From a virus, in the IMG/VR virus record IMGVR_UViG_3300044833_000182, positions 32,109 through 96,108 of that record: a stretch of 64,000 bases of DNA; one strand, 5' to 3'. Both the position numbers and the translations under genes were made by a program. Numbering within the stretch: the stretch's first letter is position 1; each line of letters begins with the position of its first letter. Shown here one piece after another: positions 2,571 to 55,349 of the stretch. Under the pieces are notes generated by a model. That model worked only from the letters and a program-made list of their open reading frames with translations, searched no databases and was not told where the DNA came from.

Positions 2571-3404
2571 TCAGGTGGATTCGATCAGATCCCACACCCG
2601 ACGACGGTAGTCTTCCCGGATCGCCTTTGCCCCTTCTGGCGTGATGTGATCGCAGAGTGGCGGAAGGTCGGAGTCGGCTTCTTTCCACGACGAGACGCCG
2701 GGGAATGCCCGCGAGAGGACAGGCCACCAGTGGGGATCGTTCAGCGGAGCGCCCCTTGCGTTCACGTCCCAATAGTCATCGGTTGTGAAGTCGGCGTCTT
2801 GGTCGCCATCGACGAGGGTCTGATGGAGAACGGCGTAATACCAATACCGCGGATCGTCCTCGCACGGCGCGATCTCGACGATGCGAACGACGGGCTTGCC
2901 CATTTCCAAGGGCGTGTGCGTATCGCCCCGATAGGACTTCCCCGGCAGCAAGGGCGGCATCGGAACGGAACCGGGCACAGCGGCCGTCTGTTCGACAGCC
3001 TCTTCGGCGTCCATCTGAGCGAGCGCCGGGGCTTCCGGTTCGACCTGCGGAGCATCCATCTCCGTGAGGAGTTGCAAGGCCCCGTCAACGGTGAGGGGCG
3101 GTTCGCCGGCCTCTTCACGGAGGCGGATCGGCTCTTCGAGACGGTGCCAGTTCTCGGCGAGACGCATGCGCACCTGTGCGGTCCGGAGCGGGGCGCGGAA
3201 ATTCTTCTGGACGAAAGGAATCCATCCGCCGTGGCCGACGAGTGGCTTTGCCTCCAAGAGAACGCGGCCGACATGGACGGCGTCGGCGAGAGAGGCAGTG
3301 GTGTGCCGGAGTTCGCTGCTGTAGTAGTCGTTCGCCCGCTGGCACAGCGCAAGCGCCTGCTGCTGGGACGACACGACGATGGCCGGGGGATTGAGGTTCT
3401 TCAC
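2571..3404 (-). CDS. DUF3102-domain protein
   Basis: AVHVGRVLLEAKPLVGHGGWIPFVQKNF..RTAQVRMRLA; GTG start at 3404 after GGAGA. Confidence 0.8.
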   Translation of the reverse strand: MKNLNPPAIVVSSQQQALALCQRANDYYSSELRHTTASLADAVHVGRVLLEAKPLVGHGGWIPFVQKNFRAPLRTAQVRMRLAENWHRLEEPIRLREEAGEPPLTVDGALQLLTEMDAPQVEPEAPALAQMDAEEAVEQTAAVPGSVPMPPLLPGKSYRGDTHTPLEMGKPVVRIVEIAPCEDDPRYWYYAVLHQTLVDGDQDADFTTDDYWDVNARGAPLNDPHWWPVLSRAFPGVSSWKEADSDLPPLCDHITPEGAKAIREDYRRRVWDLIEST

Positions 3405-3469
3405 GATGTCTCTCCGTGGAGGATGGGTGAGGCCAAAAGCGCAGGATGTCTGCGCATTTGAGGGACTGC

Positions 3470-3709
3470 TTACCTCTTGTCCGTTGGGTCTGGATGGTCC
3501 TTCTTGAACTTGCCGTAGTCCCGAAGGACGTTGGGGCGGAGGTAGCCGTCGATCATCTGGGCAATCTTCATCCGCTTGTTGCGACTGTCGCGAGTGAAGA
3601 AACACATTTCACGGATCATCTCCAGGAGATCAACAGCGATGCGAGCGGTCTCCGACTCCGGCTCTTTGGACGCATCGTCAGGGGGAGGCGACGGAGGCTT
3701 CTTGCCCAT
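3470..3709 (-). CDS. Small divergent regulator 1 (RHH-like repressor)
   Basis: ETARIAVDLLEMIREMC..KIAQMIDGYLRPNVLRDY; paralogous to 18786-19037; divergent from promoter 3863. Confidence 0.65.
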   Translation of the reverse strand: MGKKPPSPPPDDASKEPESETARIAVDLLEMIREMCFFTRDSRNKRMKIAQMIDGYLRPNVLRDYGKFKKDHPDPTDKR

Positions 3710-3862
3710 GATTGGCTCCAGCAAGAACACTGCCGACATTGTGACGCCTCCCGATGTTACCCGCGACAAGTGGAAACGGACAAGCCATTTAAGTATACCA
3801 GGGCGACGATTCTGTGACAAGGGATTTTAGCCCCGATTTCCAGTTTCCAGTCACAAATCACC

Positions 3863-3891
3863 TTGACACCAGTTACTCACCCTGCTAAGAT
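3863..3891 (+). promoter_or_regulatory. Sigma70-type promoter P1
   Basis: TTGACA-17-TAAGAT with TGn extension, in an AT-rich gap with GTGAC/GTCAC half-sites. Confidence 0.75.
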
Positions 3892-3937
3892 ACACATCAG
3901 TCACCCAACCACCGCCCGCCCCTCCGGAGCTTCGACC

Positions 3938-32676: not shown

Positions 32677-33014
32677 CACCTGGACGACTTGCAGAATTGC
32701 GTCACTGGCTCAAGATGTGTCGCGATGAATCGATTCCAGAATTGGAGTGGCAATCGGTGGTGCGCCAGTTGCTTGACGCTGTTGAACAGTTGCAAGCTCA
32801 ACTCAAAGAACATGCTCTTGACCCGGACATCCTGGACTGTGCGGCAGTCGCGAAAATGTGCGGAGTAGCCCCTCGCACGGTCATGATGTGGTGCGACAAC
32901 GGGCGACTCCGCTGCGAGCGGGAGGGGTTGACCGCCAACCGCGTCATCCGGCGACAAGACGTGATTGACTTCATGCACGAACATGGATTCGCTTTCGTGG
33001 AGAACGACCTGTGA
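32673..33014 (+). CDS. Protein with a C-terminal MerR/Xis-type HTH
   Basis: AAVAKMCGVAPRTVMMWCDNGRL..R.I.R.D...FM.EHG. Confidence 0.75.
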   Translation: MTPGRLAELRHWLKMCRDESIPELEWQSVVRQLLDAVEQLQAQLKEHALDPDILDCAAVAKMCGVAPRTVMMWCDNGRLRCEREGLTANRVIRRQDVIDFMHEHGFAFVENDL

Positions 33015-33127
33015 ACGAATCCGACTGGCTTTCCAGCGACACCCCCGCCTCCATGCTCGCCTTCCTGCTCGCCCCGAGCGGCACGAGCGGCGGCCGGGGG
33101 GCTGCGCCGCCGATCAGCGAGAGAAAG
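33011..33127 (+). pseudogene. Orphaned original 5' end of the 33756 gene, in frame with the HNH
   Basis: NESDWLSSDTPASMLAFL..ISERK matches [23 protein letters not shown]. Confidence 0.7.
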
Positions 33128-33256
33128 CAGGATGTATCGGCTAGCGTCGATTCTGAATCCTTTACGGATGGCGTGCGTCTAATAAGCGGGTCGGCGAGGC
33201 GTTGCGAGCGCCTGCCGACCCTGACCACAACCACCCTTCTTGCGAAAGGGCATGTC

Positions 33257-33766
33257 ATGGCTGAGCGTATTCCTATCGCCTTGCGCCCTACCTTTCAACC
33301 GCGCCCTGGCAACACCGGAGCCGCAGTCGCCTACCTCCTCTGGACGTTGGCTGGCAGCACTGTCCGTCTCGACGGCGGCTGCTGGGAGTGGATTGGCAAC
33401 CGGCACCAGGACGGCTACGGCTATTTTGAGATCGACGGTACGCTTTACCGCGTCCACCGTCTCGTTTACGAAGTCTGCGTCAGCGACATCCCTGATGGGT
33501 TGATGGTGCTTCACCGTTGCGACTACCGTTCTTGCTGCAATCCCGCCCATCTCTATGTCGGCGATGCGCTCGCCAATATCACCGACTGTCTGGTGCGCGG
33601 ACGGCACCCGGCGAGCAAGTTGAACAACGATGCCGTGCGTGATATCCGCCGCCGTGCTGCCTTGGCGAAGAACAGAAACTATAGCGCCCTCGCACAGGAG
33701 TACGGCGTTAGCTACGGTTGTATCAAGGACATTGTATACCGAAAGAGGTGGAAGCATGTCGATTAG
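33257..33766 (+). CDS. HNH homing endonuclease 1
   Basis: GCWEWIG..GYG.F..VHRLVY..VLHRCD..CCNPAHL..N..D; C-terminal HTH. Confidence 0.92.
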
Positions 33767-34766
33767 CAGCGAGACCGACTGGTTTTCTTCTGTCGATCCT
33801 GCTGCCATGTTGGCCCATGTTCATGGCAAGGTGTCGGACAGAAAGTTCAGATTGTTTGCTGTGGCCTGCTGTTATCAAGTTTGGCACTTACTCACGGACG
33901 AAAGGTCAAGCCGAGCCGTTGAAGTCGCTTCCCGTTTCGCGGACGGTGAGGCTACGGAAAACGAGAGATTCCGAGCTTGGGATACGGCCATATTCGAGAC
34001 GAGTGGTCTTGTCTTCGCCGCCGCCCGTTGCGCTGATGATGATGCGCACATACATCTGTCGCCCGGGATCGTTTGCAATGCTGTCGAGCAATGGTTTCCC
34101 TTCGCTTCACAAGTCGCCTTGCTGCGTGACATCGTCGGCAACCCCTGGCGACCCATCCGCTGCTCCTGGTGCGCGGGTGACGGGTTGGCGTCTCACGAGG
34201 ATGACGAGAGGAAGTGCGGCGTGTGCGGTGGAAGCGGCGGACTGCCGTTGCGATGGCTGACGCCCCTCGTGGTTTCGCTGGCGACTGCCGCCTATTCCGA
34301 ACCGTCCCCCGCCGACCTCCCCTGTCCCGCCTGCCGGGGCAAGGGAAGGCGACGCGCCGTACCTGTTGCGCCGGACAGCGAGCGGTCGTGTCCCGAGTGC
34401 GGCGGCAAGGGGCGGGTGGCGAATCCGTTTCCCGGGGTGCTCGACCCCGACCGGCTCGCCGTACTCGCGGACAGCCTGGAAGAGGCCGGTTTGTCGCCTG
34501 AAGAGGAATCGCCCTGCCCAACTTGCCGGCCATACCACAACGACCCGAGAAACCCCTGGGGCGTCGGCCCCGGCTATCACCCCGAGCGCGATCCAGCAAG
34601 CGGCCGGCACGAGGGGGCATGGACGAATTGCAAGACGTGCAACAGCCGGGGCGGGAATCACGCCGGAACCGTCCGCAAGCCGTCCAGGCTTCTGACTCAT
34701 CTTCGCGAGCCGGGGCCGCACGTAAAAGGTTGTCACGTCATCGACGCGCTGCTCGGAAAGGAGTGA
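33756..34766 (+). CDS. Gemmataceae-expanded family protein with three inserted zinc fingers
   Basis: [58 protein letters not shown]. Confidence 0.85.
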
Positions 34767-50857: not shown

Positions 50858-51841
50858 ATGGCAGTGGTCAAGGTCGCAGTACCGAAGCTGAACATCACCG
50901 CACACTTCACGCCACGGCAAGCGATGCGCCGCCGCGGCGTGTTCCGCGAGTTTCAGCACACGGCGCCCATCATCCCGGCCACGGTGCTGCCGGTGGATTG
51001 CACGGGTGACGGCAAAGTGATCGCGCTGATGGATCACAATGACGCTTACGGAATCTGCGGATTTGCGATGGCAAATCACGTCGATGGGATCTGGACGTTC
51101 GGGCAGGGCAAGCCCGGGTGGAAGGAAAGCGTCTGCGATCAGGACGCCTTGCTGGCGCAGTACCTGCGGGTCAGCGGCGGGGACAACGGCGTCGATGAAG
51201 CGATGATGGTCGGCTCGGGCGGCGCCTGGCGCGTCGGCATCGCGGGGAACCCGGCGGCGTGCATCGTGGACGCCCTCGACATCGACGTGGCCAACATACC
51301 GCTCGCTCAGTTTTGCATCGACAACTTTTACAACGTGTGTATGGCCTGGTCGGTCCCTGACGACTTCATCAAGGGGTTTGACACGGGCACGGTGTGGACC
51401 AACGCCGACACACCCAATCCCATGAACGGCCACTACACGCCGTTGGCCGACGTGCGCACTGACGGCCTCTACCGTCTGTTTTCATGGGGCACCTGGTGCT
51501 GGGTCGGCCCGAAGTTCGTCGCCAGCGTGCAGCCGCAGTGTTTTACGGCGTTCTCCGCCCGCCAGTTCGACCCGGCCACCGGACTCGACAGCAAGAATCG
51601 GCACGTCACGACCCAGGCGAAGGTGTGGTCTTCTTGCGGTGGCAACGCCATCCCGGCCAGCGTTATCAACGCTTTTCCGCCCCCGGGTGGGGTTGTCCCT
51701 CCTCCGCCACCTCCGCCTCCTCCCCCGCCTGTGGGGCCAACGGAGGCCAAGGTCCAGGCGGCCGTGGACGTGCTGTTCTCTCGTTACAGGCGCGTGACGA
51801 AGCAAATGATCGACGCGGCCATTCAGGGAGCATTCCGTTGA
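50858..51841 (+). CDS. Papain-like cysteine peptidase
   Basis: ND.YG.CGFA (Cys), NGHY (His), FSWG; poly-Pro linker. Confidence 0.75.
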   Translation: MAVVKVAVPKLNITAHFTPRQAMRRRGVFREFQHTAPIIPATVLPVDCTGDGKVIALMDHNDAYGICGFAMANHVDGIWTFGQGKPGWKESVCDQDALLAQYLRVSGGDNGVDEAMMVGSGGAWRVGIAGNPAACIVDALDIDVANIPLAQFCIDNFYNVCMAWSVPDDFIKGFDTGTVWTNADTPNPMNGHYTPLADVRTDGLYRLFSWGTWCWVGPKFVASVQPQCFTAFSARQFDPATGLDSKNRHVTTQAKVWSSCGGNAIPASVINAFPPPGGVVPPPPPPPPPPPVGPTEAKVQAAVDVLFSRYRRVTKQMIDAAIQGAFR

Positions 51842-51848
51842 GGAAGCG

Positions 51849-52037
51849 ATGGCCAGCAAGGCGCAGTTGGAGAAGGTGTCTGAACTGGAAAAAGCCGGGT
51901 GGAAAGTTCTTCCCCCGCTTGATCCGGGAATGATGGGCGCTCCTGTACCGATGCAGTCGCCAGATAAAAAGACGTGGCTGGTTCACGAGGACGGCCACTT
52001 GACAGTCTCGCCCGTTCCGGAGCATTCACCACCATGA
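51849..52037 (+). CDS. Small hypothetical protein
   Basis: GAGGA RBS. Confidence 0.55.
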   Translation: MASKAQLEKVSELEKAGWKVLPPLDPGMMGAPVPMQSPDKKTWLVHEDGHLTVSPVPEHSPP

Positions 52038-52252
52038 CGGACAAGATCAAGGCGAAGCTGATGGCTCACGGCGTTCCGGCCGACCACTGCGACCGCCTGG
52101 CGGCGCTGCCCGCCGCCGCGCGGAAGACGGTGAATTGGGACGTGCTGCTGGACACTGCGGTTAAGAATGGTCCGGCAGCAATTGCCGCACTGCCGGGGCT
52201 GATCGCGCAGATTATCGCGATTTTTACTCCGTCTGTTCCCCAGACGCCGTAG
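52034..52252 (+). CDS. Small amphipathic protein with a recoded C-terminus
   Basis: VNWDVLL..KNGPAAIAALPGLIAQIIAIF. Confidence 0.7.
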   Translation: MTDKIKAKLMAHGVPADHCDRLAALPAAARKTVNWDVLLDTAVKNGPAAIAALPGLIAQIIAIFTPSVPQTP

Positions 52253-52338
52253 CGGAACTACGGATAATCCGATAAAATGGACCCGCAGGGTATGTAACGC
52301 CCTGCGAGTCCGGTTGCAACCTTTCTGAGAGGCTGCTC

Positions 52339-53022
52339 ATGTCAAGGATAGGAGTCCGCGGGAAAGACATCAAGGTCGAGGATAGCTTCGGAAGGTGGAC
52401 CGTTATTGGCGGTCGAGACATGATCGCCGAAGGAACGCTCGGCAAGACGCGCCCCGCCCATCTGTGCCGGTGCAGTTGCGGCAAGGAAAGGCTGGTCAGA
52501 GATGGAGCTTTGACAAGAGGAGAGTCGATCAGTTGCGGATGTTATCAATCGGAAGTGGTGTCGGCAGCAGCCCGGAAGAGAAACACGACCCACGGAGCGA
52601 ACCGCACCAGACTGCATCGTATCTGGCACGGCATGCTTACCCGATGCAACGATCCGGAGAACGAGGATTACGGAGGGCGAGGGATTTCGGTCTGTCCGGA
52701 GTGGCACGACTTCGCGGTTTTTCAGACATGGGCGCTAGCTAATGGCTACCGCGATGATCTTCAGATTGACCGATTCCCAAACAACGACGGCAACTACGAA
52801 CCGGGAAACTGCCGATTTGCCACGAACAAGGATAACAACCGTAACAGACGGGATAACGTTCTCCTGACGGCCTGGGGTGCAACAAAAACGATAGCAGAGT
52901 GGGCTGAGGATTCGCGCTGCTTGATCAGTTACGATTCGTTGGTGTATCGAGTCGGAAAAGGCAAATGGGATCATGAACGAGCGATTTCGACGCCGTCCAG
53001 GCAGCACAAGAAGAAGCTGTAA
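52339..53022 (+). CDS. HNH-type homing endonuclease 2
   Basis: FGRWTVI..CRCSCG..SISCGC..THG..TRL..IW..M..RC..YGGRGI.VC.EW..IDR..NNDGNYEPGNCR. Confidence 0.92.
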   Translation: MSRIGVRGKDIKVEDSFGRWTVIGGRDMIAEGTLGKTRPAHLCRCSCGKERLVRDGALTRGESISCGCYQSEVVSAAARKRNTTHGANRTRLHRIWHGMLTRCNDPENEDYGGRGISVCPEWHDFAVFQTWALANGYRDDLQIDRFPNNDGNYEPGNCRFATNKDNNRNRRDNVLLTAWGATKTIAEWAEDSRCLISYDSLVYRVGKGKWDHERAISTPSRQHKKKL

Positions 53023-53023
53023 G

Positions 53024-53125
53024 CTTGCGGAAGTCGTCAAGAACGGTCCGGCGGCGGCTGCTGCCCTGCCCGGCCTGATCGCGGCGATTCTGGCGATCTT
53101 CTCGCCGCCCGCCCCGACGCCCTGA
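53024..53125 (+). pseudogene. Orphaned original 3' end of the 52034 gene
   Basis: EVVKNGPAAAAALPGLIAAILAIFSPPAPTP* duplicates ..VKNGPAAIAALPGLIAQIIAIFTPSVPQTP*. Confidence 0.85.
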
Positions 53126-53158
53126 CGCATCCCGGCCGCGCGCCCGGGACGGGTATAC

Positions 53159-54475
53159 TCGGCCGGCCACCAGAAAACAGTTTCAGTTATGTGGATAAAT
53201 GGAGACGATTTTGCTACTGCTGGGCTTTCATTTGACAGCGGTAATATGGGATAATAGCAGGTATGGTCATGCACCAGCGCTGCTATCGATTCCGTATGCA
53301 ACCCAACCGGAAGCAAGAACAGTCTCTTGCTCGTCTGGCAGGTGCGCGTCGATGGGTATGGAACTGGGCGCTTGCTCGGCGGAAGATGTACTTTGCCGAA
53401 CATGGCAAGGGTATTTCAGCGGCGCAGCTTTCCCGAGAATTGACGGCGCTGAAGGATCAGCCAGAAACGGCGTGGTTGCGCGAAGTCCACGCGCAGGCGC
53501 TGCAGCAGGTTTTGCGCGACTTGGACCGGGCGTTCGTCAACTTCTTCGAGCGCCGCGCCGGTTTTCCGCGATTCAAGAGCCGCAAGCGATCTATCCCGTC
53601 TTTCCGCATTCCGCAACACGTCAAGGTTGCGGACGGCAAGGTGTATGTTCCGAAGATCGGCCTCGTGCGAATTCGCCAATCACAGGCGGTCGAAGGCGAG
53701 AGCAAAAGTGCCACCTTCAAGCGGGACGCCTGCGGGAACTGGTACGTTACGCTGGTTGTTGCCTTTACCATGCCGGACGTTGCGTTGCCGCCGCCCGATC
53801 CGGAGAAGGTTGTCGGCATGGACGCTGGGCTGAAGGACTTCATCGTTCTGTCCAACGAGGAGCGCGTTCCGGCCCCGCAGTTTTACCGCAAAGCGCAGAA
53901 GAAACTACGTCGCGCCAACAAGGCATTTTCTCGACGGAAGCGAGGGAGCAAGCGGCGCGACAAGGCGCGACGACGGATTGCCCGCATTCAACAGCAGACG
54001 GCGAACAAGCGGCAGGACTTTCTGCACAAACTGAGTACGGACATTGTCAAACGGTTCGATGGCGTCTGCATCGAGGATCTGAACGTCAAGGGCCTTGCGA
54101 GAACAAAGCTGGCCAAATCGTTCACCGATGCCGCACACGGGGAGTTCAGACGGATGCTGGAGTACAAGTCGCTCTGGCATCGCAAGCATCTTGTTGTCGT
54201 GGGGCGATCCTTCCCCTCGACGAAGACTTGCAGTGCGTGCGGCGCGGTCAACGACAACCTCACGTTGAAGGATCGGCAGTGGATCTGTCCGGCGTGCGGG
54301 GCTATTCTGGATCGCGACCTCAACGCCTCTTGCAACATCAGAACGGAAGGACTGAGAATCTTGGCCGTGGGGCACACGGACAATAACGCTCGGGGAGTCT
54401 TTATAAGACCTTGCGCAAGCGGGGCAGTGGACGATGAACCGAGAATCCCGATGCCGCAAGGCTAGGGAGTGTCAA
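53159..54475 (+). mobile_element. IS200/IS605-family non-autonomous element 2 (left boundary approximate)
   Basis: Right end GAAT-hairpin-GTGTCAA ending at 54475; AT-richer left end. Confidence 0.75.
53263..54465 (+). CDS. tnpB: RNA-guided endonuclease TnpB
   Basis: YRFRMQP..G..RWVWN..L; RuvC GMDAG / IEDL / DRDLNAS.NI; CSAC..CPAC. Confidence 0.95.
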   Translation: MVMHQRCYRFRMQPNRKQEQSLARLAGARRWVWNWALARRKMYFAEHGKGISAAQLSRELTALKDQPETAWLREVHAQALQQVLRDLDRAFVNFFERRAGFPRFKSRKRSIPSFRIPQHVKVADGKVYVPKIGLVRIRQSQAVEGESKSATFKRDACGNWYVTLVVAFTMPDVALPPPDPEKVVGMDAGLKDFIVLSNEERVPAPQFYRKAQKKLRRANKAFSRRKRGSKRRDKARRRIARIQQQTANKRQDFLHKLSTDIVKRFDGVCIEDLNVKGLARTKLAKSFTDAAHGEFRRMLEYKSLWHRKHLVVVGRSFPSTKTCSACGAVNDNLTLKDRQWICPACGAILDRDLNASCNIRTEGLRILAVGHTDNNARGVFIRPCASGAVDDEPRIPMPQG

Positions 54476-54514
54476 TCGGCCCTCCCGGCGCCGGCCTGGA
54501 CCACGAGGAAAGCG

Positions 54515-54772
54515 ATGCCGCCACTGAAGGACATCCTTGGAAAGCCGGGGCAAGGGATTCACTTTCATTTCCTCGGCATTGCCGTCCTTGACGTGCTGGC
54601 GACCGTGCTCCTGGGAGCGGCGATGGGCTGGTTGACCTGCTGGCTGACTGACTCGATGCCAATGATCTGGTTTGTCGCGGTGCTGTATGTCGTGATTCTG
54701 TTCGCGATTGGTGAAGCACTGCATCTTATCATTGGCGTCGATACGACGGTCGCTCGATGGTTACAGGAATAG
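54515..54772 (+). CDS. Small membrane protein
   Basis: ILGKPGQGIH..DVLAT..GEALH..GVDT; two TM segments. Confidence 0.7.
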   Translation: MPPLKDILGKPGQGIHFHFLGIAVLDVLATVLLGAAMGWLTCWLTDSMPMIWFVAVLYVVILFAIGEALHLIIGVDTTVARWLQE

Positions 54773-54791
54773 GTTGGGAAAGGGGCGAGTA

Positions 54792-55349
54792 ATGTACAAA
54801 GAATATCTCGAATGCGAGAAGCCGCTGTTCCCCCTCCGCAACCCCATGCTGCGGAGCGGTGTCCAGCCGACGCCAACCGATATCCTCGGGCCGTTCTACA
54901 AGGCTGGCGCGCCGCTGGTCGCAAACGGCGTCATCGGCGAGGCCGATCAGTTCAACCGCCTGACCATCCACGTTTCCGGGCGTGTTCTATCGGTGGACGG
55001 CGAGCCCGTCGCCGGGGCCGTACTGGACGTGTGGCAGGCGGACAGCCACGGCGTGTACGACAACGACGGGTACAGACTGCGCGGCAAGGTCGAAGCAAAC
55101 TATGTCAATGTCGGTGGATACGAGTTTCAGACGGTCATGCCCGGGGACTACCAGATCGGCGACGAGCCGCCCGAGTTCCGCTGCGCCCACATCCACGTCA
55201 TCGTGACGGCGTCTGGGTTCAAGACGCTGACGACGCAACTGTACTTTGCTGATGACAAATACGATGCGACTGATCGCTGGTTCGACGCCAGGCGGGTGAT
55301 CCAGGTTCCGCACGGGACGTTCGATTTCGTCCTCGTGCCGGAGGGCTGA
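54792..55349 (+). CDS. Intradiol ring-cleavage dioxygenase family protein
   Basis: GPFY, SGRV..G.P..GA.LDVWQAD..GVY, F.T.MPGDY, RCAHIH, LTTQLYF; two Tyr and two His Fe ligands present. Confidence 0.92.
   Translation: MYKEYLECEKPLFPLRNPMLRSGVQPTPTDILGPFYKAGAPLVANGVIGEADQFNRLTIHVSGRVLSVDGEPVAGAVLDVWQADSHGVYDNDGYRLRGKVEANYVNVGGYEFQTVMPGDYQIGDEPPEFRCAHIHVIVTASGFKTLTTQLYFADDKYDATDRWFDARRVIQVPHGTFDFVLVPEG

Follow-up and report, generated by a model that had tools for sequence, protein, structure and literature searches.

The stretch of DNA analysed here (the window) makes up the 64 kb at the right-hand end of an IMG/VR virus record of 96,108 bp. Within it, a nuclease gene is flanked on one side by a full-length target gene, which encodes 72 residues, and on the other by a further copy of that gene's end (Table 1). 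The original prediction, made from the bases alone, had described the 72-aa gene, an HNH reading frame and an orphan copy of the gene's end, and all three are present where they had been placed; as an observation it is confirmed, and its interpretation is partly supported, as set out below.

Table 1. Genes and sequence parts at the nuclease locus, numbered as in the window
Feature	Position	Strand	Remarks
Upstream 62-aa gene	51849-52037	+	GC3 0.63; no Pfam or PHROG match
72-aa target gene	52034-52252	+	Stop TAG at 52250-52252
Head of target gene, codons 1-42	52034-52159	+	Read as native; GC3 0.90; colinear with P0003-P0005
In-frame tail, 30 codons and TAG	52160-52252	+	Read as arriving with the nuclease cassette; GC3 0.57
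Cassette spacer, 86 nt	52253-52338	+	TAAAAT 52273-52278; hairpin 52279-52311; RBS GAGAGG 52327-52332
Nuclease gene, free-standing, 227 aa	52339-53022	+	phrog_374, E 1.5e-53; candidate PacI-like HNH-type; GC3 0.63
Right junction, 13 nt	53023-53035	+	Between nuclease stop and start of homology
Orphan tail, 29 codons and TGA	53036-53125	+	Read as displaced native 3' end; GC3 0.86

The locus and its parts

The target gene is joined to the 62-aa gene before it by an ATGA overlap of the TGA of the latter with the ATG of the former, and so the two would be translationally coupled. The product of the next gene upstream (50858-51841, +) is 327 aa long and contains twelve consecutive prolines close to the C-terminus; neither Pfam nor PHROG has a match for it, and no relatives of it were found in viral contigs. 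On the other side, 137 nt 3' of the orphan tail, lies a TnpB/IS605 OrfB-type gene (53263-54465, +; phrog_506, E 4e-122) with HTH_OrfB, OrfB_IS605 and Cas12f1-like TNB domains. Two selfish elements, the nuclease cassette and the TnpB element, thus adjoin. The latter has no DNA similarity to the other TnpB element in the genome, so that comparing the two did not yield the ends of the IS.

The nuclease gene is free-standing and has its own translation signals, with an RBS that ends 6 nt ahead of its ATG. The hairpin that had been noticed ahead of this RBS is well formed: its two arms (52279-52290 and 52300-52311) are 12 nt each and 92% complementary, and the fold energy of the spacer is -32.9 kcal/mol (z = -2.3). 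The TAAAAT motif that had been listed with the hairpin is likewise present; however, a consensus scan called neither a sigma-70-type promoter nor a terminator in the spacer and so gives the motif no support as a promoter.

The tail of the target gene occurs twice in the genome, once on each side of the nuclease gene, and older fragments of it are not clustered there. The two copies form a direct repeat of 72 nt (52160-52231 and 53036-53107; 75% identical, spacing 876 nt); the longest of the other repeats in the 2.2-kb region measures 24 nt. A tblastx comparison of the two nuclease flanks gave E 1.7e-10. Furthermore, when flanks of 305 nt were compared, this locus scored 51.5 bits and none of 255 cross-locus controls scored above 25.4 bits, which rules out chance similarity of the two tails. 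The 13 nt of the right junction show no homology to the last codons of the head, and no native codons were lost at the insertion. The orphan tail would start at 53033 if an extra Val is counted. It has no start codon of its own and lies in a different frame from the nuclease reading frame; the sole ATG in its frame (52973) is within the nuclease gene and has no obvious RBS.

Phage HNH genes are frequently intron-borne (PMC3984707), and one alternative is a nuclease carried by a group I intron or an intein, with the orphan as the true downstream exon. The probability of a self-splicing element at this locus is very nearly negligible. The group I intron was rejected because no Rfam family matches at E <= 1 in 51500-54900 and because the upstream frame runs on into a complete homologous tail with its own stop. 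An intein was rejected because the target gene ends in the TAG codon and is separated by the non-coding spacer from the nuclease gene, for which there is a dedicated RBS, and because the orphan lies in a frame other than that of the nuclease.

The nuclease

The product of the nuclease gene belongs to a PHROG annotated as 'HNH endonuclease'. By sequence it matches nothing in Pfam or the PDB, neither a Pfam HNH domain nor PacI, and none of its 7677 homologues at E <= 1e-10 carries a Pfam domain. A structure model built from 47 sequences has a pLDDT of 91.9. Foldseek returned no match to this model at E <= 1e-3, and the best match by VIA-align, a modest one, is the HNH restriction enzyme PacI (3m7k_A; Z 6.6, rmsd 3.0 over 78 residues, residues 85-174 of the model). 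Among the 47 sequences R145, Y153 and N157 are invariant and N169 is nearly so. The family has an Arg in place of the HNH general-base His and the invariant Y153 in the next loop, and the present protein is also read as having an N-terminal Cys-rich beta domain. In PacI, too, the catalytic His is missing and its role falls to a Tyr in a loop (PMC5714182); PacI-like His-Me finger nucleases further have a metal-binding Asn and a beta-beta-alpha-metal fold. The apparent likeness to PacI and the PacI-like phage HNH enzymes (PDB 3m7k; PMC5714182, group 20; PMC12724721) lies in the missing canonical His and the invariant Tyr in a loop between strands, whereas sequence similarity to PacI is undetectable. 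Taken with the model, these residues make the protein a probable candidate for an active PacI-like His-Me finger (HNH-type) nuclease.

The public gene call for this protein (P0006) has 200 aa and starts 27 codons too late: it leaves out the FGRWTV motif, which is conserved at the N-terminus, and the beta strands modelled with confidence at residues 20-31. Outside the window, the genome has a third nuclease gene of this family (37% identical; G000:C1:12131-12664, -; L004, 1204-2067). Its neighbours on both sides are plus-strand genes, to which it runs opposite, and it has no flanking duplication.

Two diverged ends of one small gene

The in-frame tail and the orphan are identical at 23 of 29 residues (79%) and at 72% of their bases. 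The original prediction held that the in-frame tail is a synonymous replacement of the orphan. This is correct for part of the sequence, since the codons differ at 12 of the 23 shared residues; nevertheless, six residues differ, and the in-frame tail has one extra codon. By the NG86 method dN is 0.155 and dS 1.17, giving a dN/dS of 0.13, as is typical of divergence under purifying selection. Saturated synonymous divergence with so few replacements suggests that both tails evolved as working coding sequence, as diverged functional alleles of separate lineages rather than as a fresh duplication; the orphan would then have been displaced recently relative to the divergence of the tails.

The contrast of AT-ending and GC-ending codons that had been noticed between the two tails is borne out by counts. 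Of the 12 synonymous differences, eight pair an A/T-ending codon in the in-frame tail with a G/C-ending codon in the orphan and one is the reverse (sign test, p = 0.039). GC3 differs between the head and the in-frame tail (Fisher test, p = 0.0015) and not between the in-frame tail and the nuclease gene (p = 0.55). Along the target gene, a two-state likelihood model places the change point of GC3 best at the end of codon 40; the support interval (codons 30-44) includes the repeat boundary at codons 42/43. This comparison of composition covers 30 codons only, and 11% of the 30-codon windows in the genes of this genome have a GC3 of 0.57 or less; the adjacent 62-aa gene, at 0.63, is likewise low.

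Together, these comparisons fit an origin in which the head and the orphan are native and the in-frame tail came together with the nuclease gene. Two other origins of the paired tails have to be weighed here. The 3' end may have been duplicated in tandem and have diverged in place, the nuclease gene having landed between the copies or having caused the duplication, with no imported tail. Endonuclease-induced breaks can produce local duplications (PMC13096335), and the insert is flanked by direct repeats. Moreover, no donor of the in-frame tail was found: the nearest relatives of the nuclease (about 50% identical at most) have no tail homologue alongside. However, the dS and dN/dS would require long selection at the protein level on both copies, which an untranslated orphan would escape, and the 8:1 bias at third positions is not expected under the mutational regime of one genome. 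We regard local duplication as unlikely.

The polarity could also be the reverse, in that the head and the in-frame tail are native and the nuclease gene was inserted behind them, between genes, together with a foreign downstream fragment. Copying of the donor's downstream fragment is allowed by the model proposed for the WHO elements of yeast (see below), and a distant relative of the 72-aa protein (P0004) ends in ..AIFTP as the in-frame tail does, whereas the orphan has ..AIFSP. Against this, the GC3 of the orphan (0.86) fits that of the head (0.90) and not that of the nuclease gene (0.63), which the in-frame tail fits instead, and a native gene of 72 codons would need a sharp switch of GC3 exactly at the repeat boundary. 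This arrangement is improbable in our judgement.

The relative just mentioned is one of three distant members of the 72-aa protein's family, which were found by an exhaustive HMMER search of 1.84 billion representatives (E 2e-4 to 6e-4): P0003 (118 aa), P0004 (62 aa, 47% identical) and P0005 (68 aa). The contigs that carry them are 919, 1319 and 934 bp long. Each has the conserved head and one tail and is colinear across the junction of the two, from which the normal architecture is taken to be one head and one tail. The 72-aa gene itself has no match in Pfam or PHROG. The prediction had argued that the repaired reading frame implies selection on the gene. An in-frame join is not by itself a sign of selection, because recombination within the gene yields it automatically; instead, it is the low dN/dS and the three metagenomic family members that support a real and constrained gene.

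Searches for an uninterrupted allele covered several collections. A word-based search of 5.8 billion proteins with the 72-aa query matched the query itself only. No nuclease-less allele or close relative was found by blastn and tblastn in 50,697 phage records, by scanning viral contigs for peptide patterns (from the 72-aa protein, the family alignment and the 327-aa protein of the upstream gene) or in metagenome and genome contigs. None of the 174 loci examined encodes a member of the 72-aa family, and the relatives of this phage's terminase are at most 52% identical to it.

Similar footprints at other loci

We surveyed 85 viral loci that encode this nuclease family, using the 305-nt flanks and the cross-locus controls; the flanks of 1 kb that this test replaced had been swamped by low-complexity, off-frame matches in GC-rich DNA. 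Two of the 85 loci exceeded the control ceiling, the present one and L010 (34.5 bits; IMGVR_UViG_647000236_000001, 2821-3931).

In L010 an SSB gene is affected, and the present layout appears there in mirror image. The nuclease is 45% identical to the present one. On one side of its gene (GC3 0.40) lies the native start of the SSB gene, 15 codons that end in a stop; on the other, the remaining SSB gene (GC3 0.84) is fused to a recoded start (GC3 0.21). The two starts use different codons at nine of their ten shared residues. The copy on the in-frame side, beside the nuclease gene, appears to be the foreign one in L010, which is a further point against reverse polarity at the present locus. The L010 nuclease gene is AT-rich, with a GC content of 0.40 in a phage of 0.60.

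In L176 (IMGVR_UViG_3300005804_000054, 2460-2900) the SSB gene is uninterrupted: no nuclease gene is present, and a single 5' end is joined to the body of the gene, of which the residues after the first 14 codons are 80% identical to those of L010. On these alignments, L176 can be taken as the empty site for L010, and for this related nuclease the pair shows the sporadic presence that marks free-standing homing endonuclease genes. By hand count (alignment A6) the L010 orphan is identical to L176 at 29 of 35 nt and the in-frame copy at 24 of 35, a difference that is not significant. The single copy in this nuclease-less relative at an analogous locus also speaks against tandem duplication.

Two further loci, L086 (2436-3005) and L033 (2471-3279), have the last 8-10 codons of the upstream gene duplicated at exact positions on both sides of the nuclease gene. 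The duplicated ends (..ELFRKYE.. in L086; FSNILKI followed by a stop in L033) are spelled differently in the two copies, including a TCT/AGT serine switch in L033. The scores of both loci are within the range of the controls, and these duplications are suggestive. With two clear and two suggestive cases among the 85 loci, most members of the family sit between genes without a duplication footprint, which is therefore a recurrent yet minority habit of this nuclease family.

A second cassette in the window (33011-34766, +; cassette 1) is a mirror image of the cassette at 52160-53035. Here the orphan is a 5' end (at 33011; GC3 0.90), which continues in frame as the reading frame of an HNH_3-type nuclease (Pfam PF13392); after this comes a recoded 5' end (GC3 0.60) fused to the remainder of a 336-aa Cys-rich gene. 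A distant relative of that gene (L256) has one N-terminus and no nuclease gene before it. The layout thus occurs, if the two suggestive cases are included, at four loci of one nuclease family and, in the present genome, also with an unrelated HNH_3 cassette.

A cassette that may replace the gene end it displaces

With a probability of roughly 70%, we interpret the locus as an 876-bp homing cassette (52160-53035) that was inserted into the 3' part of a small phage gene, at the boundary of its codons 42 and 43. The cassette would consist of a foreign allele of the last 30 codons, the spacer with its hairpin and RBS, and the gene for the PacI-like HNH-type nuclease. The native head would read in frame into the foreign tail, so that a full-length chimeric protein of 72 aa is still made, and the native tail would have been pushed downstream, where it persists as an untranslated fragment. 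Intron-less homing with replacement of the gene end, as originally predicted, is thus favoured by the layout, the composition, the divergence of the tails, the second cassette and the pair of L010 and L176, with the reservation that the replacement tail is only partly synonymous.

The same architecture is known elsewhere; the prediction had named integrative elements and organellar homing endonucleases as known cases of gene-end replacement. WHO elements at the FBA1 locus of yeasts (Coughlan et al., 2020; PMC7282813) comprise a chimeric gene with an element-borne 3' end, an endonuclease gene and a leftover 3' fragment. In the model for these elements, a sensitive FBA1 allele is cut where the replaced part begins, and repair from the donor installs a resistant 3' end together with the endonuclease gene; the 3' end that the recipient had before is left over as the downstream fragment and acts as a homology arm. 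The order of the parts is identical to that of the phage locus. Nevertheless, there are differences: WHO proteins are intein-derived endonucleases with zinc fingers that home at meiosis in a eukaryotic nucleus, whereas the phage enzyme is a PacI-like HNH-type candidate, and the phage locus has no cluster of successive elements.

The second precedent comes from the mORF hybrids of fungal mitochondria, at atp6 of Allomyces macrogynus (Paquin et al., 1994) and at atp6, atp9, cox2 and nad3 of Glomus (PMC3630166). There too the order of parts is an inserted foreign C-terminus, an endonuclease ORF and the displaced native C-terminus. The inserted end is 64-81% and the native end 91-98% identical in nucleotides to relatives, while protein identity is high (PMC3630166). 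These elements differ in being organellar and in their endonucleases, and their ORF is sometimes fused in frame, whereas the nuclease gene of the phage locus lies beyond a stop codon and a spacer and has an RBS to itself.

Among phage enzymes, SegF, SegG and MobE of T4 are comparable in that a free-standing nuclease gene lies beside its presumed target and spreads by break repair with co-conversion of the flanks (reviewed in PMC2988022). These genes sit between genes and lack a duplicated gene end, and the string 'duplicat' does not occur in that review. We found no phage example of the gene-end-replacing layout in the published phage and homing-endonuclease literature that we searched. The mechanism itself is therefore not new; it is a layout known from yeast and fungal mitochondria for which a published phage example was not found.

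By analogy with the WHO elements and the mORFs, on which our scheme is modelled, homing would proceed in three steps. In a mixed infection the nuclease would cut an uninterrupted allele near the 52159|53036 junction. The break would then be repaired from the cassette-bearing genome, with homology provided on the left by the head and on the right by the downstream tail fragment; an illegitimate one-sided event may instead join the right side, with the same product. Repair would finally bring in the resistant tail and the nuclease gene together. Both routes place the predicted cut at 52159|53036, and empty alleles would join 52159 to 53036. We infer the nuclease activity, the cut site, the resistance of the new tail and the repair route from the precedents. 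In the first 15 nt from the junction the two tails differ at two positions, so that the resistance of the in-frame tail is not obvious from the sequence.

A more restrictive reading departs from this scheme in the repair route only. The tail and nuclease gene may have been captured once, illegitimately, by one-sided break repair; the target gene would not be a target of the nuclease, and the orphan would be a passive scar with no role in mobility. One-sided repair joined at microhomologies is documented for intron homing in T4 (PMC2988022), the footprint is found in a minority of the nuclease family, and the genome has two copies of the tail and no cluster of older fragments. However, the insertion is clean, and the recurrence at four loci and in the HNH_3 cassette suggests a regular process. 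A single capture of this kind seems to us quite improbable.

At the other extreme, the resistant end, the nuclease gene and the downstream fragment could form an obligate three-part mobile unit, the phage counterpart of the WHO elements; the orphan would then be no scar but an arm still used in recombination. This stronger proposal is tentative, and we consider it a possibility that falls somewhat short of even odds. If it holds, endonuclease genes would have a way into phage coding sequences that needs neither intron nor intein; the evolution of gene ends would be driven towards chimeras, and cut sites would be marked to the nucleotide in metagenomes.

In the usual accounts, phage homing endonucleases are situated between genes or within introns and inteins. 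The present locus points to what may be a third route to harmlessness, in which the element supplies a replacement for the gene end that it severs. The likely cut site can be read from the recoded and orphan copies as 52159|53036, which makes the specificity of the nuclease directly testable. Furthermore, the similar footprints at L010, L086, L033 and cassette 1 suggest that the layout is recurrent in viruses, where chimeric gene ends may arise from it.
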